Of a DNA stretch of 43,625 nt, positions 18,168 to 36,411 are shown piece after piece. The stretch's first letter is position 1. Each line of letters begins with the position of its first letter. Both the position numbers and the translations under genes were made by a program. The DNA comes from Candidatus Colimorpha enterica. GTDB taxonomy: Bacteria; Bacillota; Clostridia; Oscillospirales; CAG-272. The notes under the pieces are model-generated. The model was not told the DNA's origin, searched no databases, and saw nothing but the letters and a program-made list of their open reading frames with translations. The stretch covers positions 1-43,625 of the forward strand of contig FR891151.1 in NCBI GenBank assembly GCA_000433515.1. Reading direction: 5' to 3'.

Positions 18168-18182
18168 ATCAAAGGAGGTAAG

Positions 18183-18440: not shown

Positions 18441-18450
18441 GCTACATATA

Positions 18451-18479: not shown

Positions 18480-18504
18480 AAACGCAAATGAGTAGGAGGG
18501 TTAT

Positions 18505-18981
18505 ATGAATAGCTATAATGTTAAACAAGTAGCTGACCTGTTAAAAACCAATCCCGAGACCGTTCGACGCTGGATTAGATCTGGTAAATTGGTCGCACAA
18601 CAGGATTCTCGTAAGGGTGGAAATATTATTTGCGAAAGTGCTTTGAGAGAATTTGTAAAATCAACACCTAAGTATGCTGGAACTACAACCGCCTTTCTTT
18701 TGGGAACGGCTGCTTTGTCTACCGCCTTAATCGGAGGCATTGTCGCACATAAACTGTCTGCCGAGGAAAACATAAAAAATGCCCATATTTCCGCAAATGA
18801 CATATGCGAATTTGTATCTACAGAAATTGAAGCACTTTCAAGCTCTGTTTCAAACAAAAGAAAAACTATCCGTCATTTGGAGTCGGAGATAGAAAACGAA
18901 AGCAAAAAGATAGAGGAATTGAGAGAACTTCTTAAAACACTTTCAACTTTATCCGATGGAGGGGAAAAAGATGAAAGATAA
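18505..18981 (+). CDS. Excisionase/MerR-type HTH (HTH_17-like) protein fused to a TM segment and a C-terminal coiled coil
   Basis: RBS GTAGGAGGG. N-terminus YNVKQVADLLKTNPETVRRWIRSGKL. Hydrophobic TTTAFLLGTAALSTALIGGIVA. Heptad-like EIEALSSSVSNKRKTIRHLESEIENESKKIEELRELLKTL. Confidence 0.65.
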   Translation: MNSYNVKQVADLLKTNPETVRRWIRSGKLVAQQDSRKGGNIICESALREFVKSTPKYAGTTTAFLLGTAALSTALIGGIVAHKLSAEENIKNAHISANDICEFVSTEIEALSSSVSNKRKTIRHLESEIENESKKIEELRELLKTLSTLSDGGEKDER

Positions 18982-20140: not shown

Positions 20141-20144
20141 AATT

Positions 20145-21209
20145 ATGAAACGAATTTTGTCTTTAGTTGTTGCTATGCTTATGATCATCAGTTTGACTGC
20201 TTGCAATAGCAATCAAGGTTCAACGGATAAAGAAACCAAGAAAATTATAGATGCCGCTGGAGACGAGGTTATCATTCCTGCCAAAGTAGATACAGTAATC
20301 AATCTTGTTACATACGGATGCCAAGTTATGGTTGGGCTTGGATTTGGTGATTATCTTGTCGGTATTAATGTAGATGCTATCGAATCTCCATGGATGGCTG
20401 AAATGTATCCGAGAACCAACGAAATTGAAAAATTTGACCAAGAAGCAAGTGCTGAAATTCTTTTGAGAGCAAATGCTGACATTGTTCTTGTTCAAGAAGC
20501 AGAGCAAGCTCGCGATTTGAGAAGCAAGGGTGTTACGGCAGTCACCTTTTCATATTGGTCTTTGGAGGATATGAAGGCAACCATTAAAATGTTAGGGGAT
20601 ATTTTGGGTGGAGATGCTGTAGAAAAGTGTAATAAATATATTGCCTATCTCGACGGAAACATTGCATTGGTCGAAAACACTCTCAAAGATAAGGTACTTG
20701 AAAAAGAAACTCTCTATTATATAAACGGTGTTTCTAATAAAGGGCTATATAAAACTGCTGGAAAGGGTTCTACAAATTCTGCCTGCGCTCAACTTTCCCA
20801 TACCATATTTGCAACAGATTCACTGATAGAATCCCCTGCTAATAAGGTTGATAGCGAAGCAATCTTATCGGTGAATCCTCAAAATATCATAATTGGTGGA
20901 AAATATCAGCATGTCCTCTACGACGAATTGATGGTAACATCTGAATGGTCTAACAACACTGCTGTAAAAAACGGGCATGTATTCAAGGTTCCAATGGGTA
21001 TTTCTGCTTGGAACAGATACGGAATAGAGATTGCCCTAATGATTACATGGACAAGTGCTGTTGTTTATCCTGAGTACTTCGAATATGATCTTGTAAAGGA
21101 AACCATCGATTTTTACAAGGAATTTACCGGGATTACATTGACAGAGCAGCAAGCTCAGTATATTTTAGAGGGGTTGACGCCAAGTGGAGAAAAAGAAATT
21201 ACAAATTGA
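20145..21209 (+). CDS. ABC importer substrate-binding lipoprotein, iron-siderophore/cobalamin (FecB/BtuF, TroA-like) class
   Basis: Lipobox ISLTAC. The size and pattern are typical of periplasmic-binding-protein type 2. It precedes a FecCD permease and an ATPase. Confidence 0.7.
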   Translation: MKRILSLVVAMLMIISLTACNSNQGSTDKETKKIIDAAGDEVIIPAKVDTVINLVTYGCQVMVGLGFGDYLVGINVDAIESPWMAEMYPRTNEIEKFDQEASAEILLRANADIVLVQEAEQARDLRSKGVTAVTFSYWSLEDMKATIKMLGDILGGDAVEKCNKYIAYLDGNIALVENTLKDKVLEKETLYYINGVSNKGLYKTAGKGSTNSACAQLSHTIFATDSLIESPANKVDSEAILSVNPQNIIIGGKYQHVLYDELMVTSEWSNNTAVKNGHVFKVPMGISAWNRYGIEIALMITWTSAVVYPEYFEYDLVKETIDFYKEFTGITLTEQQAQYILEGLTPSGEKEITN

Positions 21210-22236
21210 AAATCTTTATCAAGGCAAAAAGAAAAGCCAACTTTGGATTTTCGCTTTATTAATCATTACTGTTTTTCTTGCCGTTGTGTCCTTGTTTATA
21301 GGTCAATACGGAATGTCATTCTTTGATACTGTTAAAAGTGTTGTGGGCATCAATAGCGGCGTAGAAGCTGAAAACATCAGAAAAATCATTTTGAATATTC
21401 GTGTTCCAAGAACTGTAGCATCGATTGTAATTGGCGGAATATTGGCAATTGCCGGACTCACCTATCAATGTATTTTCCGAAACACATTGGTTTCGCAAGA
21501 CATCTTGGGTGTGAGCACAAGTTCTTGCGTTGGCGCTGCTCTTGGCATCGTATTAGGATGGAGTACCCTTCATATTCAGTTTTTGGCATTCGCTCTTGGT
21601 GTGTTGAATATTTGTCTGATATTTTTGCTATCTTCACGAATAAAGCTTGATAAGACGCTTTCTTTGATTTTGTCCGGCATATTAATCGGAGGAGCCATGT
21701 CGTCTGTGCTTGCTCTTATTAAATATATGGCGAATCCGGAAGTGCATTTACAAGCAATCGTTTTCTGGACGATGGGAGATATTTCTTCAATAACGCTGGA
21801 TCAGTTAGGATTTATTGCTGTGCCTGTGATTGTCTGTACCGTTATACTCTTCGCAAAGAGCTGGGATCTTAACTATTTCTGCTTCGTTGATAGCGAAGCA
21901 AAAAGCATGGGCTTTAACCTCGCTCGTAATAGAATTATTTTTCTTGCATGTGCAACTGTTTTGGTTGCTTCGGCCGTTTCTATTTCGGGATCCATAGGAT
22001 GGGTTGGTCTTGTTATTCCTCAATTGGTACGACTGTTAATTGGGACAAACAATCGCTATACAATGCCACTCTCGTTTTTAATGGGAAGCTCCTTTTTGCT
22101 TTTGGTAGATGTTCTTAATCGTTTGATTTCCGCTGCAGAACTGCCAGTAAGTATTTTATCCGGTTTGCTTGGATTGCCGTTGTTTGTTGTATGCTGGCTC
22201 ATAAACGCTAAACATAGTGAGGTGGAAAGCAAATGA
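21184..22236 (+). CDS. FecCD-family ABC permease
   Basis: About 9-10 hydrophobic segments, with blocks such as RVPRTVASIVIGGILAIAGLTYQCIFRN. The start codon is uncertain (GTG 21184 overlaps the SBP gene). Confidence 0.75.
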   Translation: MEKKKLQIENLYQGKKKSQLWIFALLIITVFLAVVSLFIGQYGMSFFDTVKSVVGINSGVEAENIRKIILNIRVPRTVASIVIGGILAIAGLTYQCIFRNTLVSQDILGVSTSSCVGAALGIVLGWSTLHIQFLAFALGVLNICLIFLLSSRIKLDKTLSLILSGILIGGAMSSVLALIKYMANPEVHLQAIVFWTMGDISSITLDQLGFIAVPVIVCTVILFAKSWDLNYFCFVDSEAKSMGFNLARNRIIFLACATVLVASAVSISGSIGWVGLVIPQLVRLLIGTNNRYTMPLSFLMGSSFLLLVDVLNRLISAAELPVSILSGLLGLPLFVVCWLINAKHSEVESK

Positions 22237-23024
22237 TTCAAGTCAAGAATTTATCATTTAGATATAAGAACAATCTCCCTTTGATACTTGATGATTTGTC
22301 GTTTTCCATCGAGCGTGGATCTATTCTTTCGATTTTAGGCAAAAATGGTGTAGGCAAAACAACATTTATCAAATGCTTAACGTCTGAGATAAAAAACTAC
22401 AGCGGAACCATACTTGTTGATTCGAAGGATGTTCGACAATTATCCATAAGTGAATTATCAAAATCAATTGCTGTTGTAGCCTCAAACAATCCCTGTTATC
22501 AAAACTTATGCGTTGCAGACTTTCTCGTCACAGGATTTGCTAATAAACTTACAGCTCTCAAAGCGCCGAGAAAAAACGAATATGAAAAAGCATGTTCTGT
22601 CTTGGATGAATTAGGTCATGTAGATTTGCTTAATCGAGCTATCTTTGAACTATCATCCGGTGAATTGCAAATTGTAAAAATAGTACGTGCAATACTTCAA
22701 AATCCGAAGGTTATAGTTTTTGATGAACCTACTTCTAATCTTGACATTAAAAATCAATTGATTGTCCTAAATCAAATTACAGGACTTTCGCAAAGAGGAT
22801 ATACCGTAATCACAACAACTCATAATCCGGGACAATCAATAGAGCTTGGAGGAATGGTATTGATGATGTCCGGGTCGCATCAAATCTTTGGCAAAACCGC
22901 TGAAGTGCTTACGGCAGAAAATCTTCGAAACACATACAACCTCAATGTTTCGATTGAAGAAGGGCGGTTCCGGCAGTATGCCTCTTTTGAAGATGAATCT
23001 GGAATTCATCGGTTAATATATTAA
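22233..23024 (+). CDS. ABC transporter ATP-binding protein (FecE/FepC-like)
   Basis: Walker A GKNGVGKTT, signature LSSGELQ, Walker B VIVFDEP. A 4-nt ATGA overlap with the permease gene. Confidence 0.85.
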   Translation: MIQVKNLSFRYKNNLPLILDDLSFSIERGSILSILGKNGVGKTTFIKCLTSEIKNYSGTILVDSKDVRQLSISELSKSIAVVASNNPCYQNLCVADFLVTGFANKLTALKAPRKNEYEKACSVLDELGHVDLLNRAIFELSSGELQIVKIVRAILQNPKVIVFDEPTSNLDIKNQLIVLNQITGLSQRGYTVITTTHNPGQSIELGGMVLMMSGSHQIFGKTAEVLTAENLRNTYNLNVSIEEGRFRQYASFEDESGIHRLIY

Positions 23025-23048
23025 CATTTATTACACACATTTATGGAA

Positions 23049-23087
23049 ATAGCCGTGTGGACATTTTGTCCACACGGCTATGTTTTT
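23049..23087. terminator. Bidirectional terminator between convergent genes
   Basis: Perfect 14-bp stem atagccgtgtggac/gtccacacggctat with a T-run. Confidence 0.75.
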
Positions 23088-23586
23088 AGTTTTCTTTTTC
23101 ACTTACAACAGCAAGCATTAGTTTTGCTCCAAGTTTGAAGGCATACTCAAATATAGCTGCTTCTGCAAGACTCACATACTCGTTCCAACAATCTTGGTAC
23201 TTTTCAAAGATGACTTTTTGTTCGTCGGTTAATAGCTTTTCTAAATCCTCATCATGCCTTGCTATATAACTGATGAGTTCCTTCATTTCCTTCGTGTTGG
23301 TTCGGCTATCTTCTTGCGGTATGATATTTCCGTGCCATAGTTCATTGATGATCGACCTCATTGATAGACCACCTCCTGCAGGACGATTTCTTCCGGAACT
23401 GCCTTGCCAACGAAATGCAAAGGACTTCTTTGTTTTCGTTTGTGTGATTCCTGTTTTGGCGTACACTTTATTCTTGATAGAGGAAAGTGTATCAGCCGAA
23501 ACATCAGACGCAGCATTTTGACTTACGAGTTTTTCAAGCTCGTTTGCGGACGCTTCATCGAAAATATTATTTAGTGTTTTTTTCAT
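23086..23586 (-). CDS. Composite ORF: anti-sigma-like N-terminal segment fused in frame to a small helical protein that retains its own RBS and ATG (23361)
   Basis: The N-part MKKTLNNIFDEASANELEKLV...SSIKNKVYAKTGI resembles proteins encoded after clostridial ECF-like sigma genes. The internal GGAGGTGG lies 7 nt before ATG 23361 and opens MRSIINELWHGNIIPQE... Confidence 0.55.
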   Translation of the reverse strand: MKKTLNNIFDEASANELEKLVSQNAASDVSADTLSSIKNKVYAKTGITQTKTKKSFAFRWQGSSGRNRPAGGGLSMRSIINELWHGNIIPQEDSRTNTKEMKELISYIARHDEDLEKLLTDEQKVIFEKYQDCWNEYVSLAEAAIFEYAFKLGAKLMLAVVSEKEN

Positions 23587-24143
23587 ACCTCATTACCTCC
23601 AAACAATTTACGAAGTTTGTTTAAGGCTCTGTGTGTTCGGGTATCAACATTTGATACGGTCAGACCGACAGCCTTGGCAATATCCTTGGAGGACTCTCCG
23701 TAATAAAACTTACGGAAAATAATACTCGAGTCAGGCTCGCCGAGATCTTCGACCGCCTTGATAACCTCACGCCTAAGTTCATCTTCGGCGAGTTCGCTAT
23801 CGATTATTACGTCATCCGCAACCTGCAAAAGTGATTGCTCATCATCGAGGGAGATGCCTCCTTCGAGACTTCGTCTCTTAGAAACGTTGATCGCTTGATT
23901 ACGTGCGATGACGCACAGATAGGTTTTTATACTCGATATCTTAGGATCGTAGTCGGACAGCTCCGCATAAAATTTGCTGAATACGTCTGCCACACAGTTT
24001 TCAATATCGGATGATACATAATAAGAATCGTCAAGTTTGCTTTTGACAACAGCATAAACAAGACCTGTGTACTGATTCATTAATTGTTCCATTCCGGCGT
24101 TCGGGTCTTTATGTAGTAGTCGAAGTAACTTGTTATCCTCCAT
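23583..24143 (-). CDS. Sigma-70 family (ECF-like, regions 2 and 4) RNA polymerase sigma factor
   Basis: Start at ATG 24143 after AGAGGTGAG. Region 2-like LMNQYTGLVYAVVKSKL...DIENCVADVF. Region 4 HTH SSKDIAKAVGLTVSNVDTRTHRALNKLR. An ATGA overlap with the downstream ORF. Confidence 0.8.
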   Translation of the reverse strand: MEDNKLLRLLHKDPNAGMEQLMNQYTGLVYAVVKSKLDDSYYVSSDIENCVADVFSKFYAELSDYDPKISSIKTYLCVIARNQAINVSKRRSLEGGISLDDEQSLLQVADDVIIDSELAEDELRREVIKAVEDLGEPDSSIIFRKFYYGESSKDIAKAVGLTVSNVDTRTHRALNKLRKLFGGNEV

Positions 24144-24307
24144 ATTCTCACCTCTGTCTTTGAATCGATTCACTATTATATACAATCGAGAACGCAAAAT
24201 CTTACACATCAATTCGAACCTATATAAAATTTTATCAAAAATTATTTAAAAGGCAAGATTTGAAGTTGCAAATCCCAAACACATAAGAAATCGAAAATTT
24301 GTTGAGA

Positions 24308-24344
24308 TTTTGACCAGTTCTGTACTGGTCAAATTGTGGTCAAA
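24308..24344. repeat. GGTCAAA iteron cluster A (palindrome tttgaccagt-tctgt-actggtcaaa plus one direct copy)
   Basis: Read directly. Confidence 0.8.
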
Positions 24345-24379
24345 ATTTTCTGCAAAATAAAAAATTGTGCAGAATGATG

Positions 24380-24429
24380 AAAAAAACGACCGTTTTCAAG
24401 GGGTTTAAGCCTCAAAAACGGTCTTTTTT
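24380..24429 (-). terminator. Bidirectional terminator 3' of tRNA-Pro
   Basis: The stem gaccgtttt...aaaacggtc is flanked by an A-run and a T-run. Confidence 0.6.
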
Positions 24430-24505
24430 TGGTCGAAGTGCGGAGACTCGAACTCCGTGCCTCCTGGTCCCAAACCAGGCGCTCTACCAGATGAGCTACA
24501 CCTCG
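24430..24505 (-). tRNA. tRNA-Pro(UGG): tRNA-Pro (anticodon UGG), CCA encoded
   Basis: Minus strand: CGAGGTG TA GCTC ATCTGGTA GAGC G CCTGG TTTGGGA CCAGG AGGCA CGGAG TTCGAGT CTCCG CACTTCG A CCA. All four stems pair, with one G-U in the acceptor stem. Confidence 0.9.
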
Positions 24506-24545
24506 AAGGTGAAAAAACTTATGAAATTGTAGTTCTCACAGAACT

Positions 24546-25353: not shown

Positions 25354-25382
25354 TTGACAACGACGCTACTTTGCTGTACAAT
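25354..25382 (+). promoter_or_regulatory. Sigma-A promoter of the PadR operon, with a GGTAC-TAT-GTACC palindrome just downstream
   Basis: TTGACA, a 17-nt spacer, then TACAAT. The palindrome at ~25388-25400 is a plausible PadR operator. Confidence 0.6.
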
Positions 25383-25436
25383 GTAGTGGTACTATGTACC
25401 GCAGTGTAGATATGAAACCGCACGGAAGGAGAAAAA

Positions 25437-25805
25437 ATGTTTTATGACAGGTCGCAGCTGATGCGCGGAACGCTTGAGGGCTGTATTCTGAAAATCATCA
25501 GCGAAAAGACGACGTACGGTTACGAGATAATGGTCTCGCTGAAAAACAAAGGCTTCGAGGACATATCCGAGGGCACGATCTATCCGCTTCTCATGCGCCT
25601 TGAAAAGCAGGGAAGCATTAAATCCGAGCTTCTGCCGTCGCCTCTCGGTCCTAAAAGAAAATATTTCACCGTGACCCCGGCGGGACGTGATTATCTTGAG
25701 TCGTTCGAAAACTGCTGGCGGAGGATATCCGAATCGGTCACGGGTATAATCGGCAAACGCGCTTCGGACAGTGTTTTTATCGGGGAGGCTGCTGAAAATG
25801 GATAA
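25437..25805 (+). CDS. PadR-family transcriptional regulator
   Basis: LRGTLEGCILKIISEKTTYGYEI...GTIYPLLMRLEKQG is the PadR wHTH signature. Confidence 0.85.
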   Translation: MFYDRSQLMRGTLEGCILKIISEKTTYGYEIMVSLKNKGFEDISEGTIYPLLMRLEKQGSIKSELLPSPLGPKRKYFTVTPAGRDYLESFENCWRRISESVTGIIGKRASDSVFIGEAAENG

Positions 25806-26496
25806 GGAACTATCCGCTTCTATGAAGAAGCTCAACAAAGAAAACCGCCGCGTCATAATGAAAATGGAGCAGTACATGGAATCGCGGTATATCAACGAGA
25901 TCGCCGGAGAGGATATCCTTGCCGATATGGTGGGGATGGCTCTTGAATATCAGGAGCGGGGAGAGCCGTTTCCCGAGGCAATCGGCGGTGACTGCGAGGC
26001 TTTCTGCCGCGAGCTTGTCAGAAATTCTCCGAGGCAGTCTCCCATCGAGCGGGTGCTGAGCGTCCTGCGGTGGCTGATGCTGTTTTCAATGATACTCATG
26101 CCGTCTCTGTGGCTTATCGAGCTTATATTCCCGAAATACTCTCCCTCTGAGGCTGACGGCTTTCTGTTCACAACGCGGGCGGCGTTTGCCATAAAATACT
26201 ACATCCTGATGTTCATTCTCGTCATCGGGTGGTTCTTTGTCAGAATGTACACGTATAAGCCGATGAAATATGTAATGGGTACATATATCGGCATATTCAT
26301 GCTGTTCTTCCTTTTCACGGACGGGGTTCTCCGATATATCGTGAAGGATTATGTCATATCGGTGAATATAATCGTCTGGGTGGCTGCCTTTGGTGCAGTA
26401 CTGCTTCTTTGCGACGTGCTGAAGCGGCTGGCTGCGATAACGGTGGCATACAGGAAGCGCAAGGAAAGTCAGAAAAACAACTCCTCCGGCAGCTGA
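25798..26496 (+). CDS. Membrane protein of the type paired with PadR regulators (DUF1129-like)
   Basis: ATG 25798 overlaps the PadR stop (ATGGATAA), with GGGGAGG upstream. An N-terminal soluble helical part is followed by about 4 TM segments. Confidence 0.6.
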   Translation: MDKELSASMKKLNKENRRVIMKMEQYMESRYINEIAGEDILADMVGMALEYQERGEPFPEAIGGDCEAFCRELVRNSPRQSPIERVLSVLRWLMLFSMILMPSLWLIELIFPKYSPSEADGFLFTTRAAFAIKYYILMFILVIGWFFVRMYTYKPMKYVMGTYIGIFMLFFLFTDGVLRYIVKDYVISVNIIVWVAAFGAVLLLCDVLKRLAAITVAYRKRKESQKNNSSGS

Positions 26497-26523
26497 AGCG
26501 CCGGATATAAGAAAGGACATAAT

Positions 26524-27408
26524 ATGGCAGACAGAAAAAAACGACGCGGCGACCGTAAGGACGGATATCTTGTCAGGGAAACCGACCCTCTGCACGCGAT
26601 CTCACCTTACATCCTGCCGAACCGCACCGACAACGAAGCTGTACTGACCGAGACGGTCGATATGACAAACGTCGTTGCCTACATAGAAGGCAGAAACGCA
26701 GACAGTCCCGAGTTCAGATACACGTTTTTCCACTTCATCTGTGCGGCGCTTGCAAAAACCATCACCCTCAGACCGAAAATGAACAGGTTTTATTCCGGAC
26801 ACCGGCTTTACGACCGGAAGGATCTTCTGTTCTCCTTCGTCGTCAAGAGAAAATTTGCAGATGACGGCGCAGAGGCACTTGCAACCGTCAAAATTGACCG
26901 TGAAAGCGATGTCCCGCCTCTTGACCAGATATACGAACAGGTTAAAAAATACGTTTATAGTGTCAGAAAAAGCGACAAAAACGATTCGACTACAGATAAA
27001 ATGAATCTTCTTCTGATTATGCCGCGCCCGATACTCCGCTTTGCAATGAGAGTCCTCCGGTGGCTTGAATATCACGGCCGATATCCCAAAGCACTTATGT
27101 ATGACGACCCGTATTACTCATCGGTATTCCTCTCCAATCTCGGAAGCATAAAGATGAGCGCGGACTATCATCACCTTGCCAACTGGGGAACCAACTCCAT
27201 CTTTGTCATTATCGGCGAAATGAAGCCGATGCCGTTCTATGCCGCAGACGGAAGCGTCTCCGTAAGGGAAGCGCTGAAACTGAGCCTGACGATCGACGAA
27301 AGAATAGCTGACGGCTTCTATTTTGCAAACAGCATAAAGATACTGAAAAAGCTGTTCGAATGCCCGGAGCTTATCGAAAGACCGCTGAATGAACCGATCG
27401 AATTATAA
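26524..27408 (+). CDS. Stand-alone 2-oxoacid-dehydrogenase E2 / CAT-fold acyltransferase domain protein
   Basis: 294 aa. The C-terminal block LSLTIDERIADGFYFANS aligns by eye with the E2 catalytic DHRxxDG motif, but carries Glu in place of His. Confidence 0.65.
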   Translation: MADRKKRRGDRKDGYLVRETDPLHAISPYILPNRTDNEAVLTETVDMTNVVAYIEGRNADSPEFRYTFFHFICAALAKTITLRPKMNRFYSGHRLYDRKDLLFSFVVKRKFADDGAEALATVKIDRESDVPPLDQIYEQVKKYVYSVRKSDKNDSTTDKMNLLLIMPRPILRFAMRVLRWLEYHGRYPKALMYDDPYYSSVFLSNLGSIKMSADYHHLANWGTNSIFVIIGEMKPMPFYAADGSVSVREALKLSLTIDERIADGFYFANSIKILKKLFECPELIERPLNEPIEL

Positions 27409-27429
27409 TACCGGAAAGGACAAAATATA

Positions 27430-29229
27430 ATGTCAACTGTCAGAACACCGTGGCTCAACAATTACGGCGACATTCCCGCAAAGCTGGAATACAAGACCGG
27501 CACTATGTGGGAAGCCGTTGCCGACGTTGCCGCCGAATATCCGGACTATGTCGCCTATGCCTTCATGGGGAGGCAGACTACATATCAGAAATTCGCAAGG
27601 GACGTTGCCGCCTGCGCAAAGTCGCTTAAGAAGATAGGGATAAATCCCGGTGACAGGGTCACGATATGTATGCCGAACTGCCCTCAGACCGTTATCATGT
27701 TCTACGCGGTGAACGTCGTCGGCGCTGTCGCCAACATGGTTCACCCTCTTTCGAGCGAGAACGAGATCGCGTTCTATCTCAATGAGTCAAAAAGCATCGC
27801 GGCGATCACTCTTGACCAGTTTTACGGCAAGTTTGCGGCGATCAGAAGCAGGGTCAATCTTGCCAACCTGATAATCGCCGATGTGAAGGACGCACTTTCG
27901 CCGCTGATGAAGATCGGTTACAGCCTGACCGCCGGCAGAAAGATACCGAAGGTACCTGATGATGCTCCGGTCATCAGATGGAACGATTTCATCAGGATGG
28001 GCAGAAGCTATACCGGCGAATATAAGGTGAAGAGAGATAAGCTCGACCCCGCGGTCATTCTTTACAGCGGCGGCACGACCGGAATTACAAAAGGAATACT
28101 CCTTTCGAACCTCAATTTCAACGCCCTTGCCGCGCAGATAATCGCTACAAACCCGGTATTCCGTCCGGGAGACTCGATGCTTGCCGTCATGCCGATGTTC
28201 CACGGCTTCGGACTCGGTGTCAGCATTCATTCGATGCTTGCAAACGGCGGCAGATGCATTCTTGTCCCGCGCTTTACCGCGGAAAGCTATGCCAGATTGA
28301 TAATAAAGTACCGCTGCAACTTCATTGCGGGCGTTCCGACGCTCTATGAGGCTCTTCTGCGTCAGTCGGTCATGGACGGCGCCGATCTCTCCTGCCTTAA
28401 GGGCGTGTTCAGCGGCGGAGACTCTCTTTCGGTTGAGCTTAAAAAGCGCTTTGACAGGTTCCTTGCCGACCACAATGCCTCCGTAAAGATCAGAGAGGGC
28501 TACGGAACGACAGAGTGCGTCACCGCAAGCTGTCTCACCCCGCTTCACCTTGCAAAGGAGGGAAGCATAGGCCAGCCCTTCCCGGACACCTATTACAAGA
28601 TAGTTGCCCCCGGTACCGAGGATGAGGTCCCTTACGGCACGGAGGGTGAGATATGTCTCTCCGGTCCTACCGTCATGATGGAGTACGTCAATCACCCCGA
28701 AGAGACGGCAAAAACGCTCAGAACTCATTCCGACGGACTTAAGTGGATACACACCGGCGACCTCGGCTGTATGGATGAGGACGGTTTCATATATTTCCGG
28801 CAGAGGATCAAGAGAATGATCGTGACAAGCGGCTACAACGTTTACCCGTCTCAGCTTGAGAATATCCTCGACGCGCATGAGCTGGTTCAGATGAGCTGCG
28901 TTATCGGGGTTCCCGATCCGCTGAAGATCCAGAAGGTCAAGGCATTCATCGTCCTGAAGCCCGGATATCAGCCGACCGACGAAAACCGGGAGATCATCCG
29001 CGAGTACTGCAGGAAGAATATTGCAAGGTACGCAATGCCGTATGATATCGAATTCCGCGAGAGCCTGCCCAAGACCCTTGTCGGAAAGGTTGCATACCGC
29101 GTGCTTGAAGAAGAGGAAGCGGCAAAGAGAGCGGCAAATGCAGCGGCGAAACCGGCAGAAACGGTTTCCGCCGACGAAAAGCCGGAAGTCAGCGAAACAG
29201 ACGCAACCGCCCCCGCGACTGTCAGATAA
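27430..29229 (+). CDS. Acyl-AMP/acyl-CoA ligase (AMP-binding superfamily) with Ala/Glu/Pro-rich C-terminal tail
   Basis: Motifs LYSGGTTGITKG, REGYGTTE, HTGDLG and PKTLVGKV. Confidence 0.85.
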   Translation: MSTVRTPWLNNYGDIPAKLEYKTGTMWEAVADVAAEYPDYVAYAFMGRQTTYQKFARDVAACAKSLKKIGINPGDRVTICMPNCPQTVIMFYAVNVVGAVANMVHPLSSENEIAFYLNESKSIAAITLDQFYGKFAAIRSRVNLANLIIADVKDALSPLMKIGYSLTAGRKIPKVPDDAPVIRWNDFIRMGRSYTGEYKVKRDKLDPAVILYSGGTTGITKGILLSNLNFNALAAQIIATNPVFRPGDSMLAVMPMFHGFGLGVSIHSMLANGGRCILVPRFTAESYARLIIKYRCNFIAGVPTLYEALLRQSVMDGADLSCLKGVFSGGDSLSVELKKRFDRFLADHNASVKIREGYGTTECVTASCLTPLHLAKEGSIGQPFPDTYYKIVAPGTEDEVPYGTEGEICLSGPTVMMEYVNHPEETAKTLRTHSDGLKWIHTGDLGCMDEDGFIYFRQRIKRMIVTSGYNVYPSQLENILDAHELVQMSCVIGVPDPLKIQKVKAFIVLKPGYQPTDENREIIREYCRKNIARYAMPYDIEFRESLPKTLVGKVAYRVLEEEEAAKRAANAAAKPAETVSADEKPEVSETDATAPATVR

Positions 29230-29256
29230 TAAAATAATCACGGAGAGGAACAACTA

Positions 29257-30438
29257 ATGGATATTTTCGACAAATGCTATGAACCGTCCCTTGCAAAGCA
29301 GGTAAGGGAGCAGGGAATCTACCCGTACTTCCACGCCCTTCAGTCACGGCAGGACAAAGAGGTCGTGATGGAGGGAAAACGCCGGATAATGCTCGGCTCC
29401 AACAACTACCTCGGGCTGACTACACAGCCGGAGGTCATCGAGGCGGGAGTGAAGGCTCTTGAGAAGTACGGCACAGGCTGTTCCGGATCAAGATTTCTGA
29501 ACGGAACACTCCAGATGCACCTTGAGCTTGAGGAGGAGCTGGCACAGTTCCTGAACAAGGAAGCCGCCATGACCTTTTCCACCGGTTTTCAGTCAAATCT
29601 CGGGATAATCAGCGCGATTGCAAAACACGGAGACTACATTCTCAACGATAAGGAAAACCATGCAAGCATTTATGACGCCTGCCGTCTGAGCTATGCAAAA
29701 ACTCTCAGCTACCGGCACAACGACATGGGAGAGCTTGAGAGGATTTTGAAGCAGATAGAGGGCAAGGGCGGTATACTCATCGTCACCGACGGCGTTTTCA
29801 GCATGAGCGGAGACATAGCCAACCTGCCGGAAATCGTCAGGCTTGCAAGGAAATACGGCGCAAGAGTCATGGTTGACGATGCGCACGGCCTCGGCGTCCT
29901 CGGAGAGGGCGGACGGGGAACCGCAAACCATTTCGGTCTTGACGACGAGGTGGATATATACATGGGAACCTTCAGCAAATCGCTTGCCAGCCTCGGAGGC
30001 TACATGGCGGCAAAGGCGGAGGTCGTCGATTATGTCAAGCACGCCTCGCGTCCGTTCATCTTCTCGGCATCGATACCGCCGTCAAGCTGTGCGGTGGCTC
30101 TTGCAGCCCTCAGATATCTGAAAGCCCACCCGGAGATCGTATCAAGGCTCCGCTCGCTTTCCGATTATGCCCGCCGCGGCTACAAGGCGAAGGGAATCAG
30201 GATAATCGAGGCTTCTACGCCGATAATCCCGATATACACCTATGAAGTCGAAAATACCATAAGAAAAGCTCACGACATCTACGAGGACGGCGTGTACCTC
30301 AATCCGGTTCTCCCGCCGGCGACCCCGCCGGGAGAGTGCCTGCTGAGAACCAGCTACATGGCAACCCTCACCGAGCCGCTTCTTGACGAGGCGATTGAGA
30401 TAATCGCGCGTCACATAAAACCCGACAGCCATGAATAA
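29257..30438 (+). CDS. PLP-dependent alpha-oxoamine synthase, serine-palmitoyltransferase-like
   Basis: GSNNYLGLT, GTGCSGSRFLNGT, FSTGFQSNLG, HASIYD, DDAHGLGVLG and GTFSKSLASLGG (PLP Lys). The pattern is closer to what I recall for bacterial SPT than for BioF or Kbl. Confidence 0.8.
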   Translation: MDIFDKCYEPSLAKQVREQGIYPYFHALQSRQDKEVVMEGKRRIMLGSNNYLGLTTQPEVIEAGVKALEKYGTGCSGSRFLNGTLQMHLELEEELAQFLNKEAAMTFSTGFQSNLGIISAIAKHGDYILNDKENHASIYDACRLSYAKTLSYRHNDMGELERILKQIEGKGGILIVTDGVFSMSGDIANLPEIVRLARKYGARVMVDDAHGLGVLGEGGRGTANHFGLDDEVDIYMGTFSKSLASLGGYMAAKAEVVDYVKHASRPFIFSASIPPSSCAVALAALRYLKAHPEIVSRLRSLSDYARRGYKAKGIRIIEASTPIIPIYTYEVENTIRKAHDIYEDGVYLNPVLPPATPPGECLLRTSYMATLTEPLLDEAIEIIARHIKPDSHE

Positions 30439-31222
30439 GGTAGCTGTCATCACCGGCGGAAGCTCCGGAATCGGAAAGGCGACAGCAATTGAGCTGAAAA
30501 AGCGCGGTCTGACGGTTTACGAGCTTTCCCGCCGCGATTCCGACATCCCGGGGATAATCCACATAAAAGCCGACGTGACCGACGGAAAATCGGTCTCCGA
30601 TGCGATAGACCGTGTGATCTCCGAGCAGGGAAGGATCGATATTCTCATAAACAACGCCGGTTACGGCATTTCCGGAGCGGTTGAATTCACTCCGGCTGAG
30701 GATGCAATGCGGCTGTTTGACGTGAACTTCTTCGGCATGGTCAGGATGACGGAAAAGGTCATTCCTTACATGAGGGAAAACGGCGGCGGGCGCATCGTGA
30801 ACATAAGCTCGGTGGCTGCCGTTGTGCCGATACCCTTCCAGACATATTATTCCGCGTCGAAGGCGGCGATAAGCTCATACTCAATGGCGCTTGCAAACGA
30901 GGTGGGGCGGTTCGGAATACGCGTCTCGGCGATAATGCCGGGTGACATTTCCACCGGATTTACCGACGCAAGAAAGAAAATCACCGAAGGCGACGATGTC
31001 TACCGCGGTTCGGTTTCCCGTTCCGTCGGGACGATGGAGAAGGGCGAGCGCGGGGGCATGGATGTGACGAAAGCCGGCGCTTTTGTGGCAAAAGCGGCTA
31101 TTGACAGAAGACATAAACCGTTATATACTATTGGTGCACAGTATAAACTTGCAGTCCTGCTGACAAAAATTCTGCCGGCAGCATGGCTCAACCATCTTAT
31201 CCGCATTATCTACGCAAAATAA
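30431..31222 (+). CDS. Classical short-chain dehydrogenase/reductase (candidate 3-keto-sphinganine-type reductase)
   Basis: TGGSSGIGKA, NNAG and YSASKAA. An 8-nt overlap with the SPT-like gene. Confidence 0.8.
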   Translation: MNKVAVITGGSSGIGKATAIELKKRGLTVYELSRRDSDIPGIIHIKADVTDGKSVSDAIDRVISEQGRIDILINNAGYGISGAVEFTPAEDAMRLFDVNFFGMVRMTEKVIPYMRENGGGRIVNISSVAAVVPIPFQTYYSASKAAISSYSMALANEVGRFGIRVSAIMPGDISTGFTDARKKITEGDDVYRGSVSRSVGTMEKGERGGMDVTKAGAFVAKAAIDRRHKPLYTIGAQYKLAVLLTKILPAAWLNHLIRIIYAK

Positions 31223-31252
31223 AAGACACACCCAGTACGGAGGATTTGAAAA

Positions 31253-31492
31253 ATGAATGAAGAAATTTTCGATCAGCTTAAAGAGATAATAGTTGACGAG
31301 CTTGATATCGACGGATCGGAGATCAAGCCCGAATCAGTCCTTCTTTCCGATCTTGATATCAATTCCCTTGAGCTTATGAATCTTGTGATGGTGGTTGAGG
31401 AAAAGTACAATATTTTCCTTGACGAAGAAAGACTTCGCGACATCAAGACTGTCGGAGACGTTGTTTCATATGTTGCCGAACTGAAAGGATGA
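31253..31492 (+). CDS. Acyl carrier protein
   Basis: 79 aa and acidic. LSDLDINSLELMNLV contains the phosphopantetheine Ser context. Confidence 0.8.
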   Translation: MNEEIFDQLKEIIVDELDIDGSEIKPESVLLSDLDINSLELMNLVMVVEEKYNIFLDEERLRDIKTVGDVVSYVAELKG

Positions 31493-33177
31493 CCGTCATG
31501 GATTCCAAAGCAAAGCTCAGCAAAAGAAATAAAGAAGGCTACTATATAGTCAAGCCGGTCAACAGCATAAAGGAAATGCTGAAAGCCGCAAAGGACGAGG
31601 CGGGCGACTGGGACGCTTATCAGTACAGGATCCCGGACGACCCGGAGAACGGTATCCGTCATATCACATATAAGGAATTCTACGAAACGACAGAGAATCT
31701 CGGCGCGGCACTGACCGACATGGGTCTCGGAAATGCGCACATCGCCTGTCTCGGCGACAACAGCTACCCGTGGATAGTTGCCTATCTTACCGTTCTGAAG
31801 TCTGCCGGAGTGTTTGTTCCGATCGACAGGGAGCTGCCGGCTGACGATATTCTCCGCATCGTAAACGACAGCGACAGCACCGCGATATTCTGCGGCAGGC
31901 GGTTCGAGCAGATGATCCTCGACAACCGCGACAGGCTCCCGGCGATAAAGTATGTCATTTCGCTTGACGCGGAGGAGAACACCGACGATATGTACTCAAT
32001 GACCGCGCTCATCGAACGCGGAAGGTCGTTTGACCGCACGGAGTATGACTCGCTGAAGTCCGACGAAAACGGGCTGAAAATGCTTGTCTACACCTCCGGC
32101 ACGACCGGCATCGCAAAGGGCGTCATGCTCAGCGAGCACAACCTTGTCTCCGGCGTCTATTACGGACTTCAGGTTTCACAGCCGCTCAGCAAGGGACTGT
32201 CGGTGCTTCCGTACAATCACACATACGAATCGGTCTGCGATATCCTTGTGTCGATACACAAGCACTCCACGCTCTGCATAAACGACTCCCTCAAGGCGGT
32301 GGTCAAAAACCTTCAGCTGTTCAAGCCGGATTATATCTACCTTGTTCCCGCGTTCCTTGAGCTGTTCTATTCAAACATCATGCGCACCCTGAAGAAGCAG
32401 GGCAAGGACAAGCTGGTATTCAGCATGATCGAAAAGTCAAACAAGCTCCGCAAGGTCGGAATCGATATGCGTAAGGTCTTTTTCGGAAAGATAACCGAAT
32501 CCTTCGGAGGAAACCTGAAGAAGATCGTCTGCGGCGGCGCTCCGATACGTCCCGAGATCGGAAAGTTCTTCGGCGATATCGGGATCTGGGTCATCGGAGG
32601 CTACGGGATCACCGAGTGCTCTCCGCTTGTCTCGGTCAACGATGAAAGCGCGAACGACTATAACACCGTCGGAAGAAGGCTTCCGTGCCTTGAGTGGAAG
32701 GTTGACGCGCCCAACGACGAGGGAATCGGCGAGATCTGCGTAAAGGGTGACGTCGTAATGCTCGGCTACTACAAGCAGCCCGAAAAGACCGCAGAGGTGA
32801 TTCAGGACGGCTGGTTCAGAACCGGCGACTACGGCTTCATCACCCCGGAGGACTGGCTCGTCATCACCGGACGCAAGAAGAACATCATTGTCCTTACAAA
32901 CGGTAAGAATATCTACCCCGAGGAGATCGAGGGATATATCATGCAGATAGATTACGTCATCGAGGCTGTCGTCAGAGGCGTGAAGAACGACCACGGACAG
33001 GAAACTCACCTCATGGCGGAGGTATACCTTGACGGTGAACACGAAAAGCAGGATGTCCTTCGCGACATTCAGAAAAAGCTCTCGGTTCTGCCGGGCTACA
33101 AAACAGTTTCCACGGTCGAGATCCGAAAGGAGCCGTTTGCAAAGACCACGTCGAATAAGATCAAAAGAACTTATTGA
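31489..33177 (+). CDS. Long-chain acyl-CoA/acyl-ACP synthetase (AMP-binding superfamily)
   Basis: YTSGTTGIAKGV, GGYGITEC and TGDYG. An ATGA overlap with the ACP gene suggests translational coupling. Confidence 0.85.
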   Translation: MTVMDSKAKLSKRNKEGYYIVKPVNSIKEMLKAAKDEAGDWDAYQYRIPDDPENGIRHITYKEFYETTENLGAALTDMGLGNAHIACLGDNSYPWIVAYLTVLKSAGVFVPIDRELPADDILRIVNDSDSTAIFCGRRFEQMILDNRDRLPAIKYVISLDAEENTDDMYSMTALIERGRSFDRTEYDSLKSDENGLKMLVYTSGTTGIAKGVMLSEHNLVSGVYYGLQVSQPLSKGLSVLPYNHTYESVCDILVSIHKHSTLCINDSLKAVVKNLQLFKPDYIYLVPAFLELFYSNIMRTLKKQGKDKLVFSMIEKSNKLRKVGIDMRKVFFGKITESFGGNLKKIVCGGAPIRPEIGKFFGDIGIWVIGGYGITECSPLVSVNDESANDYNTVGRRLPCLEWKVDAPNDEGIGEICVKGDVVMLGYYKQPEKTAEVIQDGWFRTGDYGFITPEDWLVITGRKKNIIVLTNGKNIYPEEIEGYIMQIDYVIEAVVRGVKNDHGQETHLMAEVYLDGEHEKQDVLRDIQKKLSVLPGYKTVSTVEIRKEPFAKTTSNKIKRTY

Positions 33178-33212
33178 CAATTGCGGATTTTAATCACATT
33201 AACTGCTTCGGA

Positions 33213-33257
33213 AAAGCCATCAGATAACCCTTTGCACGGGAGTCTGATGGCTTTTTT
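33213..33257 (+). terminator. Rho-independent terminator ending the lipid operon
   Basis: aaagccatcaga...tctgatggcttt followed by a T-run. Confidence 0.7.
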
Positions 33258-33632
33258 CACCATGAATCAGGACGTAAACTCGTAAATCCACTGAAAAACG
33301 TCCAACAGACTGCATTTGTGCTGGAAATAACTGCAACTGCTATAATTTATCTTTGTTTGTATTACCGGGTTGGACACACCTGCGGGCAATTTAGCTTGGT
33401 AAGCACGTTGACTCAGTATTGATGAAATCAGACAGCTTTGTGACGATAACTGCCATTGACTGACGTGAAAAAACACTATATAATATAGGGGTACAGCAAG
33501 TCATTTTAATGTATTTATCACAAAAGACTGCTTAAACAGTTACGCGATCATCCGCACGTCGGGACAGTGCTGTCGTCCGGCGCACCCGGCGCGGGTCATC
33601 ATAAATATTTCATTCCCGAAAGGATAAACAAG

Positions 33633-34781
33633 ATGAAAATGTCGAAACGTATTGCTTCTCTTCTCATCACCGTTATCATGCTACTCGGCATGATGACCGT
33701 GTTTGCAAGTGCAGTTGACGCAAGTGCAGCTGACGCGAGCATCAAGCTCAAGAATTGGAATCGAAACGATGTATTCAACTTTGAGTACACCGGAGCAAAT
33801 GAAGGATCATGGGTGGGAATATACCTTGCAAGTGAGACACCCAGTGACGGCACTCCCGCAATTATGTGGAAGTCTGTTGATGCCGGCAGCGGTGAGGCTA
33901 TGATTGCCAACGGCGCTATCAACGGAAACCAGGACGGTAAGGGCGGTGCAAAGTACAGTGACGCTTATACCAATCTTCTTCCGGGTGATTATAAGATCTG
34001 TCTCTTCAAGGATGGCGGATACGAAGTAATCGCAAGTGAGAAGTTCACCGTCAGACAGTATGATGTCAAGAAAGACGGAACGAGCACTTATCTCTCTGAT
34101 CTTCAGTGGGTTTCTTTTGTGAACTACAGAAACACTTCCGATGATCTTAAAAGCGATTCTAATCCTGATGGTCTTACACTTGAGGCAATGGGAGGAAACC
34201 GTCCGTTTTTGGATGCTCAGAACGGCGCATTTGATCCGACTGCCAACGGATATACTTATTACCCCAGTGACACCGCGCTTGTTTCTACAATAAATGTCGG
34301 CGGTCTCTATTATGAGAAGGGCATTTCGATCGCTATCAGAAAGATCACTGATGTGGACGAGATGAAGGAATTCAAGGGCAACAAAGAAAAGTATGCGGAA
34401 ATCGTTTATGATATAAGCAATCTCGATGTTAACAATTTCTCCTGTGTGTTCGGAAAAAACTACCTCGGACAGAAGGGCAACAACATCGGCGGTTGTGAGA
34501 TTCTTGCAGACGACAAGGTTATCTACACTTCTCCTGCCGAACAGATGGAAAAGAAGGATGCTGTTGAAGTAAAGTGCGAAATTCCTGCAGGAACTAAGCA
34601 GCTTACTCTTCGTGCCTATTCCACATCCCAGACTCATGCTGACGGTGGTGTTGCTTTTGCCGATGCAAAGCTTTACAAAACCGGAAGTGCTTCCACATCC
34701 GACATGGGCATCGCGGTTTCCGCCATTGCTCTCGTCGTTGCCGCTTCCGCGGCAGCAGTTGCTCTCTCCAAGAAGCACTGA
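33633..34781 (+). CDS. Secreted surface protein with NPCBM-like carbohydrate-binding module and C-terminal TM anchor
   Basis: ATG 33633 follows AAAGGA. Signal peptide MKMSKRIASLLITVIMLLGMMTVFASA. TYLSDLQWVS is the NPCBM hallmark. The C-terminal GIAVSAIALVVAASAAAVAL is followed by SKKH. Confidence 0.65.
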   Translation: MKMSKRIASLLITVIMLLGMMTVFASAVDASAADASIKLKNWNRNDVFNFEYTGANEGSWVGIYLASETPSDGTPAIMWKSVDAGSGEAMIANGAINGNQDGKGGAKYSDAYTNLLPGDYKICLFKDGGYEVIASEKFTVRQYDVKKDGTSTYLSDLQWVSFVNYRNTSDDLKSDSNPDGLTLEAMGGNRPFLDAQNGAFDPTANGYTYYPSDTALVSTINVGGLYYEKGISIAIRKITDVDEMKEFKGNKEKYAEIVYDISNLDVNNFSCVFGKNYLGQKGNNIGGCEILADDKVIYTSPAEQMEKKDAVEVKCEIPAGTKQLTLRAYSTSQTHADGGVAFADAKLYKTGSASTSDMGIAVSAIALVVAASAAAVALSKKH

Positions 34782-34869
34782 ACTGAGACAATAAGAGACA
34801 GCCATCTGACAACCGGACGACACCGTCAGATGGCTGGCGTCAGTTATTCTCCACAATGAGGTTATTCAA

Positions 34870-36411
34870 ATGAAAGTGAAAAAATTCCTGATAGCCGCAA
34901 CAGCAGTGCTTCTTGCCCTCCTTGCCTCCTGCGGCACAACAGGCACACCGGGGTCATCGACAGCGGGCGGCGGTTCAGGCTCACCCGGAACCTCCGGTGT
35001 TTCTTCCGGTTCTTCCGATACAGACGACAGCCCCCTTTATGTCGCCGATTATCTTCCCACGCCTGATCTTAAAGGGCTTGAGTTCAATATTCTCAACATT
35101 GACAAGAACCAGACTCAGCTTATTCTTGAATTCGCGCCCGATGCTTCGTCCGACAATATTATCAGCGCGGCGCTCTATAAGCGCAACAATATAATTCAGA
35201 ATCGCTATAACATGGTCTTCGTCGAGGATGTCGGCGGAAATTACAAGGATCTTGATACAAAATTCAGCCAGATTATTTCTTCCGGTGAAACAAAGTATTC
35301 GCTTGTAACCATGATACAGAGATATGCCTTTGCCAAGGCAATGAGCGGCTACTGTGTCCTTGTTGACGACCTTCCCAACCTTGATGTCACTCAGCCCTGG
35401 TATGTCCAGGACGTGAACGAGCAGTTCTCGATTGCCGGTGTCAAGGTGTTTGCATACAGCGACGAGTGCATAAATCTGTTTGAGCAGACGATGTGCATAC
35501 TCTACAACAAGAATATTGTCAATAATTCTCAGAACCTTGTCGATCCTTATGACCTTGTCAAAGCCGGAACATGGACCGTTGACAAGTTCCTTGAGCAGGC
35601 AAGGCTCGGCACGCAGGACATTGACGGTTATGAACCGATAAATGACAACGATATTATCGGAATCGTCGGCACACAGGATTTCCTGTATCCGACATTCTGG
35701 ATCGGCGCAGGACTCAATTCCGTCAAGAAGAATGACGACGGAGTCCCGAGCTTCAAGACAGCAACCGATGAGAAGTTCATCACACTCATGGACAAGATTC
35801 TTGAGTATGTCAAGATGGACGGCGTGTTCTTTGACCTCTGGGTAGACACCCCCGCTGTATATCAGTATCCCGATCCCGGCGAGTCCGCAAGAATGATATT
35901 CGAGAACGACCACGCACTTTATACCATCACTGTAGTAAGCGATATCATGCAGCACAACAAAATGAAGTCTGATTTCGGTATCGCTCCTGCCCCCAAGCTC
36001 GACGAGACTCAGGAGAGCTACAAGTCACGCGTCATCGACGGCTGGCTTAAGGTTGTGCCCAACACAAACAAGGACCTTTTCACGACCAGCCTTATCATGG
36101 AGGCTCTTGCCGTAGAGAGCAAGAACTATGTGTACGGACCCTACTACAAGCAGGCACTTCAGGGACGCTATACCCGTGACGATGAAGGAAAGTCCAACGA
36201 GATGCTTGACCTCATCTTCAACACACGTACTCAGGATCTCGGTGATACGGCATGGAAATCAAGCGTCAGCACGATATTCATGAGCTGCTTTGCCAGAAAG
36301 TCCGCCACCTTTGCCTCCGATGCGGCAAGGTATGAGGATGAAATCAACTACAATATTAAGAAAGAAGTCAAGAAGATAACCTCCGGAGAGCTCGGAGGCA
36401 AAAAGTCCTGA
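34870..36411 (+). CDS. Extracellular solute-binding lipoprotein (ABC sugar-binding, family 1-like), orphan
   Basis: Lipobox LLASCG, a Gly/Ser-rich tether, and a ~510-aa size typical of large oligosaccharide SBPs. No permease gene lies adjacent. Confidence 0.65.
   Translation: MKVKKFLIAATAVLLALLASCGTTGTPGSSTAGGGSGSPGTSGVSSGSSDTDDSPLYVADYLPTPDLKGLEFNILNIDKNQTQLILEFAPDASSDNIISAALYKRNNIIQNRYNMVFVEDVGGNYKDLDTKFSQIISSGETKYSLVTMIQRYAFAKAMSGYCVLVDDLPNLDVTQPWYVQDVNEQFSIAGVKVFAYSDECINLFEQTMCILYNKNIVNNSQNLVDPYDLVKAGTWTVDKFLEQARLGTQDIDGYEPINDNDIIGIVGTQDFLYPTFWIGAGLNSVKKNDDGVPSFKTATDEKFITLMDKILEYVKMDGVFFDLWVDTPAVYQYPDPGESARMIFENDHALYTITVVSDIMQHNKMKSDFGIAPAPKLDETQESYKSRVIDGWLKVVPNTNKDLFTTSLIMEALAVESKNYVYGPYYKQALQGRYTRDDEGKSNEMLDLIFNTRTQDLGDTAWKSSVSTIFMSCFARKSATFASDAARYEDEINYNIKKEVKKITSGELGGKKS

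Follow-up and report, generated by a model that had tools for sequence, protein, structure and literature searches.

A clostridial operon with a serine palmitoyltransferase-like synthase, a coupled candidate 3-ketosphinganine reductase and a candidate acyltransferase of E2 fold

According to reviews, sphingolipids in bacteria are for the most part confined to Bacteroidota and certain Alphaproteobacteria (PMC10191378). May a gut Clostridium make such lipids as well? The question is raised by contig FR891151.1 of an uncultured gut Clostridium, analysed here over 43,625 nt (this whole stretch is called 'the window'), and within it by six genes at positions 26524-33177, the part that is shown. An earlier reading of the letters, hereafter the original prediction, had taken these genes for a complete ceramide-type set. 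Two of them, encoding an alpha-oxoamine synthase (AOS) and a short-chain dehydrogenase/reductase (SDR), resemble the entry enzymes of sphingolipid synthesis, serine palmitoyltransferase (SPT) and 3-ketosphinganine reductase (KDSR), and it is likely, judging from these resemblances, that the operon makes a sphingoid-type long-chain base. Its features, all on the + strand, are as follows.

25354-25382 (+): promoter-like site of the sigma-70 type, TTGACA-17-TACAAT (11/12 matches), 55 nt 5' of the PadR gene
25437-25805 (+): PadR-family transcriptional regulator, 122 residues (PF03551, E = 8.8e-23)
25771-26496 (+): membrane protein (Memb), probably beginning only at the ATG at 25798
26524-27408 (+): E2L, an E2-fold protein, 294 residues (PF00198, C-terminal 85 residues only, 45.7 bits)
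27430-29229 (+): Lig1, a FadD-like long-chain acyl-CoA ligase, 599 residues (AMP-binding and AMP-binding_C)
29257-30438 (+): the synthase, an SPT-like AOS, 393 residues (Aminotran_1_2)
30431-31222 (+): classical SDR, candidate 3-ketosphinganine reductase, 263 residues (adh_short)
31253-31492 (+): acyl carrier protein (ACP), 79 residues (PP-binding, PF00550)
31489-33177 (+): Lig2, a second ANL-family acyl-AMP ligase, 562 residues, candidate acyl-ACP synthetase (AMP-binding)
33213-33258 (+): intrinsic terminator, 13-bp stem, -23.3 kcal/mol, followed by T6

The six open reading frames (ORFs) from E2L to Lig2 were found on the + strand where they had been predicted, tightly packed, with successive gaps of 21, 27, -8, 30 and -4 nt. 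The 8-nt overlap of synthase and SDR and the ATGA overlap of ACP and Lig2 (4 nt) are both exact, and a PadR gene and a membrane-protein gene (25437-25805 and about 25798-26496) do stand at the head of the operon. Ribosome-binding sites are good ahead of the non-overlapping genes. Since one promoter and one terminator enclose all eight genes, we conclude from the sequence that PadR, Memb and the six lipid genes form a single promoter-to-terminator unit (25354-33258), an eight-gene operon. The same eight-gene order was found in independent genomes or contigs (L001, L008, L028 and L081; related loci carry L numbers throughout), and it is therefore no chance arrangement.

The identity of the synthase was examined first by its scores with NCBIfam models. 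The best was NF047600 (SerpalmtaseCFB), the SPT of the Cytophaga-Flavobacteria-Bacteroides (CFB) type, at 513 bits (cutoff 640), and two relatives of the synthase, in L084 and L119, reached 519 and 511 bits with the same model. The betaproteobacterial SPT model (396 bits, cutoff 500), the bioF model (381 bits, cutoff 426), a BioF/Kbl-related subfamily model (378 bits, cutoff 535), the Kbl models NF005394 (376 bits, cutoff 460) and TIGR01822 (306 bits, cutoff 493) and the alphaproteobacterial SPT model (325 bits) all scored lower, the lead over bioF and Kbl being 132 bits. A sequence search of the PDB placed the SPT of Sphingobacterium multivorum first (408 bits, 49% identity over 380 residues), followed by Sphingomonas SPT (283 bits), a Thermus BioF/Kbl enzyme (278), Kbl (252 or less), two cysteate-C-fatty acyltransferases (236 and 226), BioF (199), human SPT2 (191), ALAS (179) and CqsA (109). 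This last score, the lowest in the ranking, ruled out a CqsA-like autoinducer synthase.

The motifs on which the prediction had relied are present, with GSRFLNGT at residue 77, FSTGFQSN at 107 and GTFSKS at 237. The segments of the pyridoxal phosphate (PLP) site, GSRFLNGT, NHAS, DDAH and GTFSKSLASLGG, are conserved; the PLP-binding Lys241 lies in GTFSKS, and at GTFSKS, NHAS and DDAH, segments of the active site of fold-type I alpha-oxoamine synthases, the window protein shows identity to the Sphingobacterium SPT or conservation with it. The synthase also served as the centre of a metagenome scan, from which a neighbour-joining tree was built. In this tree it joins its relatives in a clade adjoining the Sphingobacterium SPT, within a large radiation of SPT-CFB-like sequences, the outgroup consisting of Kbl/BioF-like sequences (32 to 42% identity). 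By sequence, then, the synthase groups with SPT and not with BioF or Kbl. The original prediction had called it SPT-like and proposed such a phylogenetic placement, and the placement bears it out: a clustering with BioF or Kbl was not seen.

Two observations on synthases elsewhere may be added. The identical protein is present on 272 contigs, and its carrier is therefore common in sequenced samples. A set of environmental SPT-CFB-like synthases (L107-L111, L113, L114, L116, L117, L124, L125 and L139; 48 to 55% identity to the window synthase) has a different SDR (32 to 38% identity) directly upstream, which looks like a second, independent pairing of SPT and reductase genes.

The SDR had been proposed to reduce a 3-keto product. 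Among its 235 NCBIfam matches the best was NF049977 (KdsR), the bacterial 3-ketodihydrosphingosine reductase (250.6 bits, cutoff 400), the next-best family being a generic oxidoreductase (230.5 bits). The protein has the motifs TGGSSGIG (residue 8), NNAG (74), SSVA (126) and YSASK (140), and it probably uses NADPH, since two arginines (SRR) follow beta-2. PDB sequence searches with the SDR, and likewise with Lig1 and Lig2, returned generic SDR and ANL matches only.

Stronger still is the coupling between the two genes. Every synthase relative of at least 64% identity is directly followed by an SDR, 48 to 69% identical to that of the window, and the pairing is kept on contigs without the other operon genes (L084-L087, L119 and L140). 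Because the SDR follows every close relative of the synthase, the two make up a two-gene module. The proposal of a 3-keto reductase thus agrees both with the best family match and with this evolutionary coupling, and the natural, well-supported reading of the pair is SPT plus KDSR, whose product would be a sphinganine-type base. In one locus, L084 (8001-12043), the genes next after synthase (80% identity) and SDR encode an unknown 262-residue protein and a class-III aminotransferase resembling glutamate-1-semialdehyde aminomutase; these neighbours hint at a different tailoring of the keto-amine or the amino-alcohol.

Could the operon instead serve cofactor or amino-acid metabolism, with a BioF-type enzyme for biotin synthesis or a Kbl/Tdh pair for threonine catabolism? 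One source labels the identical synthase protein '8-amino-7-oxononanoate synthase', true BioA and BioD genes come after the E2L-ligase pair of L162, and a BirA-like gene stands beside E2L in six loci. Against this, the bioF and Kbl scores are each below their own cutoff as well as below the SPT score, the tree places the synthase with SPT, and the operon is devoid of bioA, bioB and bioD. The Tdh/Kbl pairing was ruled out by the SDR, which is a classical, KdsR-like one and has no threonine dehydrogenase family among its 25 best NCBIfam matches. The sole apparent Kbl at 65% identity to the synthase, in L088, proved to be an assembly chimera (at 368-1555, synthase residues 1-183 match the window synthase at 100% identity, while the remainder is that of a Kbl and exceeds the NCBIfam cutoff) and was left out of the comparison. 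With scores, PDB ranking and tree all excluding BioF or Kbl as the identity of the synthase, we regard a role in biotin or threonine metabolism as very improbable.

A second point concerns the amino acid. The synthase might take another amino substrate instead of serine, such as alanine, glycine or cysteate; in place of a true sphingolipid, a 1-deoxy-sphingoid, a capnine-like sulfonolipid or some other amino lipid would result. SPTs do accept alanine or glycine (PMC10191378), cysteate acyltransferase and 3-ketocapnine reductase constitute a known parallel pathway (PMC11211663; PDB 28eh, 7u7h), and the synthase scores below the SPT equivalog cutoff. The two cysteate acyltransferases, however, were far under the SPT in the PDB search (236 and 226 against 408 bits), and no cysteate synthase-like gene was present among the window ORFs scanned; on these two grounds the capnine route was set aside. 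Overall, a substrate other than serine seems improbable.

From where would the synthase receive its acyl chain? The Spt of Proteobacteria favours acyl chains carried on a specialised ACP, which a specialised synthetase loads (AcpR/AasR), whereas the Spts of Bacteroidetes use acyl-CoA (PMC11324152). In the window, the ACP carries its attachment Ser in DINSL and scores 72.8 bits with the NCBIfam ACP subfamily NF002150, above the cutoff of 66. Its overlap with Lig2 is of the kind that couples translation, and in gene layout the pair is of the AcpR/AasR type, a small ACP with an attachment Ser adjoining an ANL ligase in an spt-type cluster. The dedicated ACP and ligase of the original prediction are thus translationally coupled, as in the proteobacterial AcpR/AasR (PMC11324152). 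The pair comes after synthase and SDR in L001, L008, L028, L082 and L142, and is found without them in L003 and L031. By analogy, it is plausible that ACP and Lig2 supply the acyl donor of the synthase.

There remain E2L and Lig1. A first AlphaFold2 model of E2L, from 13 sequences, reached a pLDDT of only 63; with an alignment of 120 sequences, pLDDT rose to 95.2 and pTM to 0.92. The 50 PDB structures that matched the fold of this model best (Foldseek) were without exception E2 catalytic cores, with E about 1e-15 and TM values reaching 0.78. An extra helical segment, an insertion of about 60 residues, spans residues 132-194. The SNLG segment and the D-x-R-x-x-D-G frame of the E2 cores of 2-oxoacid dehydrogenase complexes are kept. 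Residue conservation was assessed on 118 sequences, the window protein and 117 representatives of 50%-identity clusters. At the position of the catalytic His, Glu was found in 101 and Asp in 10 of the 118, and His in none, so that E2L departs from E2 cores by Glu or Asp in 111/118. Its His216-His217 pair, 43 residues upstream of Glu259, is new with respect to E2 cores; His216 is kept in 117/118 sequences and His217 in 111/118. Asn205, Gly207, Ser208, Asp258, Arg260, Asp263, Gly264 and Tyr266 are also conserved.

In contrast to true E2 proteins, E2L consists of the catalytic-domain fold alone: it lacks lipoyl and subunit-binding domains, E1 and E3 genes are absent from its surroundings, and its partner is a fatty-acyl ligase; its neighbours are the ligase and PadR. 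Judging from the model, E2L has an E2 fold but is no E2 in the family sense. Of the E2/CAT-fold acyltransferase originally predicted, the fold therefore stands, and the canonical catalytic His does not, its motif reading DERIADG. The family is large, counting 498 clusters at E <= 1e-30 and 1298 when the threshold is relaxed to E <= 1e-10, and we found no description of it in the literature searched, which does not prove absence.

The distribution of E2L was then surveyed in a scan centred on this protein. No fewer than 562 GTDB species have relatives of E2L, and nearly all of these species bear the label Clostridia, Oscillospiraceae, Christensenellaceae or Eubacteriales. Of 80 species loci examined, 77 were evaluable, and in 74 of these E2L was followed by a Lig1-type ligase, which makes Lig1 its conserved partner. 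The pairing extends to the distant members L162 (about 29% identity) and L164; no ligase adjoins the still more distant L166, L167 and L168, and it is thus not universal in the wider family. Besides the ligase, no widely conserved neighbour of E2L was found in the surveyed loci.

Several other members of the family have a bearing on its substrates. P0252 and P0356 are fused to N-terminal transmembrane domains. On the high-GC (66%) contig L161 (116-4524), a neutral ceramidase-like protein (900 bits, under the cutoff of 1200) is directly followed, on its 3' side, by a 773-residue protein in which an E2L domain that retains YHHL and DERIEDG is joined to a wax-ester synthase/DGAT with an HHAIVDG of its own. 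The transmembrane fusions, and the wax-ester synthase/DGAT fusion beside a ceramidase-like gene, hint that the family acts on lipids, by acyl transfer. The recurrent association with biotin genes mentioned above is an unexplained counter-hint: in L162 (7001-11713), from a 31%-GC organism, E2L and ligase are closely followed by co-directional genes for a true BioA (654 bits, cutoff 625) and BioD, and in six GTDB loci (L044, L046, L048, L058, L072 and L080) the gene upstream of E2L, in divergent orientation, encodes a BirA-like biotin-protein ligase. As for Lig1, its C-terminal tail in the window (29110-29229, about 40 residues) is rich in Ala, Pro and Glu and reminiscent of the flexible linkers of E2 proteins.

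Taken together, these data lead us to read the operon as three two-gene modules. In the first, the SPT-type, PLP-dependent synthase would join serine, or a small amino acid like it, to the acyl group of a long-chain thioester to form a 3-keto amine, which the SDR, probably with NADPH, would reduce to a sphinganine-type amino alcohol. In the second, ACP and Lig2 would furnish acyl-ACP as a dedicated donor, the simplest recipient being the synthase, after the pattern of AcpR/AasR in Proteobacteria. In the third, E2L and Lig1 would form an activate-and-transfer pair, Lig1 making acyl-CoA or acyl-AMP and E2L passing the acyl group to an acceptor. Within the operon, the most economical acceptor would be the amino group of the new base, and the product a dihydroceramide-like lipid. 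The analysis itself shows the gene order, the placement of synthase and SDR by homology together with their coupling in evolution, the E2 fold and the changed residues of its active site; we infer the substrates, the assignment of each donor to its enzyme and, above all, the N-acylation step. The three-module reading as a whole, with a dihydroceramide-like product as its most economical outcome, could equally well prove right or wrong.

The N-acylation step deserves separate consideration. N-acylation of the base is one plausible use of E2L in this operon, and it is a reasonable hypothesis because E2L shares the transcript of the other genes and because the operon contains no other acyltransferase gene. 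It is also favoured by gene order, since synthase and SDR come directly after Lig1 in 10 of the 11 loci of the Clostridia subclade in which upstream DNA was covered (the window, L001, L008, L010, L012, L028, L041, L081, L083 and L142; the exception is L084). A further argument by analogy is that gut Clostridia already have a route to N-acyl amides in which a ligase, an ACP and a condensation enzyme of the CAT superfamily take part (OaaA, OaaACP and OaaC; PMC13310621).

A number of observations weigh against the three-module reading. Both entry enzymes are under their equivalog cutoffs, the synthase with 513 against 640 bits and the SDR with 250.6 against 400. The catalytic His of DHRxxDG, shared by E2, CAT and C-domain enzymes, is absent from E2L, Glu259 having taken its place. 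The synthase adjoins E2L and Lig1 in only 6 of the 77 loci (L001, L008, L010, L012, L028 and L041), which means that E2L-Lig1 is without synthase-SDR in about 92% of species loci. L003 and L031 have the order PadR-Memb-E2L-Lig1-ACP-Lig2, with neither synthase nor SDR, and L002 has PadR-Memb-E2L-Lig1 only; conversely, L084 and L119 have synthase and SDR with no E2L-Lig1 within 8 kb. The E2L tree scatters the synthase-bearing loci among synthase-less ones (the window and L001, for instance, have L002 and L003 as their sisters), and E2L-Lig1 is kept in it where synthase-SDR is absent. No column of the alignment separates synthase-linked from synthase-less E2L proteins.

As E2L-Lig1 is common without synthase and SDR, the function of the pair needs no synthase-SDR genes. 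The co-distribution with Spt that is expected of a ceramide synthase was not found for E2L, and since E2L-Lig1 mostly occurs without synthase-SDR, E2L is not a dedicated ceramide synthase. For the same reason, and for want of the catalytic His, the word 'complete' in the original prediction of a ceramide set did not survive. That E2L, fed by Lig1, N-acylates the base is consequently a tentative and somewhat doubtful proposal, held back by the distribution of E2L and by its altered active site.

These same facts suggest that two pathways may share one transcript. E2L-Lig1 would then be an independent module for membrane-lipid acylation or the incorporation of exogenous fatty acids, a split functional analogue of Aas, while synthase, SDR, ACP and Lig2 would yield either a sphingoid-type base that stays free or a lipid whose N-acylation is left to an enzyme encoded elsewhere. 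The conservation of E2L-Lig1 without the synthase, also in the distant L162 and L164, its persistence in the E2L tree, the lack of residues specific to synthase-linked E2L and the solitary synthase-SDR pairs of L084 and L119 all speak for this, as does the ligase of L162, which also matches the acyl-ACP synthetase part of Aas. It has to contend, however, with the position of synthase-SDR directly after Lig1 in 10/11 subclade loci, with the enclosure of all eight genes by one promoter and one terminator, and with an operon that offers no other acyltransferase gene. Such a division into two pathways is the chief rival reading and is possible, though we think it rather unlikely.

How does the operon, in the three-module reading, compare with known systems? 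Bacteroidota have an Spt of the Sphingobacterium/Bacteroides type and the 3-ketosphinganine reductase BT_0972 (PMC9278070); the synthase is nearest to this SPT lineage, and the SDR to the KdsR model, which was built on BT_0972. The window enzymes differ from their Bacteroidota counterparts in scoring under the equivalog cutoffs, in being served by a dedicated ACP and ligase where the Bacteroidota Spts use acyl-CoA, and in belonging to a Gram-positive-type Clostridium. Their genes, moreover, overlap by 8 nt and travel together, unlike the spt and reductase genes of Bacteroides (BT_0870 and BT_0972), which we take to be non-adjacent.

The ceramide genes of Caulobacter offer the second comparison. 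Their acyltransferase, bCerS, is GNAT-like; the candidate acyltransferase of the window, E2L, has an E2 fold instead. Like the genes for Spt, AcpR, AasR, CerR and bCerS in Caulobacter and other 'Rhodobacteria' (PMC11324152, PMC11087976), those of the window bring together an SPT, a special ACP and acyl-ACP synthetase, a reductase and a candidate N-acyltransferase. The synthase, however, reaches only 325 bits with the alphaproteobacterial SPT model, the reductase best matches the KdsR (Bacteroides KDSR) model, and the host has no periplasm to separate the steps. By sequence, the operon is thus a Bacteroidetes-type SPT and KDSR combined with a Proteobacteria-style ACP supply, a hybrid architecture.

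With the Oaa pathway, an NRPS-like route to fatty-acid amides found in the same bacterial class, the operon shares a free-standing ligase, an ACP and an acyl-transfer enzyme of the CAT superfamily, and OaaC, like E2L, has a non-canonical active-site motif (PMC13310621). OaaC is a Condensation-domain protein, whereas E2L matches only the E2 catalytic domain, and the amine would here be made in situ by synthase and SDR and not taken up. The original prediction had held that such a pathway was undocumented in Clostridia; we too found no description of an SPT-KDSR or sphingolipid pathway in Clostridia in the literature searched, which does not prove its absence.

The surroundings of the six genes can be described briefly. 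PadR is also found upstream in L001, L002, L003, L008, L010, L023, L028 and L031, and Memb, with a weakly DUF1048-like soluble N-terminal part and about four hydrophobic helices in its C-terminal part, follows it across related loci. A search for a PadR operator in the form of an inverted repeat (seed 6) found none. The G+C content is 49 to 55% in the operon and 46 to 54% in the downstream DNA, against 38 to 41% in the mobile-element-like DNA immediately before the operon. This low-GC block (7900-24510, where values of 38 to 43% were found) carries a DUF772 transposase (7942-8832), a large serine recombinase (9912-11579, - strand), a MobA/VirD2 relaxase (11972-13072, - strand), an S24/LexA-like repressor, a NERD nuclease, an iron-type ABC transporter and an ECF-type sigma factor with DUF6809; at its end, just upstream of the operon, it adjoins tRNA-Pro(tgg) (24430-24505, - strand).

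On either side (1268-7733 and 33567-36411) are genes with host-glycan functions, encoding a GH43 enzyme, a beta-helix protein, a lacto-N-biose phosphorylase (655 bits), an NPCBM-domain surface protein and a lipoprotein-like protein of 513 residues. They are consistent with a forager on gut mucin or milk glycans. Further downstream, a tetrahydrofolate (THF) riboswitch (42081-42179, - strand; 90.3 bits) falls inside the ORF listed for an ECF-transporter S component (41398-42297), so that this gene probably starts only downstream of the riboswitch; after the S component comes a FolC/Mur-ligase-like gene (40109-41401).

The sphingolipids of gut bacteria are known to enter host metabolism and modulate immunity, and at present they are attributed to Bacteroidota (PMC10191378; PMC10871352, citing Brown 2019). 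If it is true that Clostridia make sphingoid bases or ceramide-like lipids, this attribution would change, and a hybrid pathway would be added in which an SPT and a KDSR of CFB type are served by a dedicated ACP. At its widest, the proposal would be that prevalent gut Clostridia make dihydroceramide-like lipids de novo, that the His-less E2L is a third, independently evolved type of ceramide synthase, and that E2L and its ligase are a general and hitherto unrecognised lipid-acylation system of more than 560 bacterial species; we consider this unlikely to hold in all its parts. The E2L-ligase pair in any case represents an enzyme family that is large and still uncharacterised, its active site having been rebuilt, and the operon yields the first concrete hypothesis for the acceptor substrate of E2L, one that is directly testable. 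What the locus presents is a known kind of pathway, here in an unexpected phylum, with a hybrid architecture and an uncharacterised candidate for its last step.

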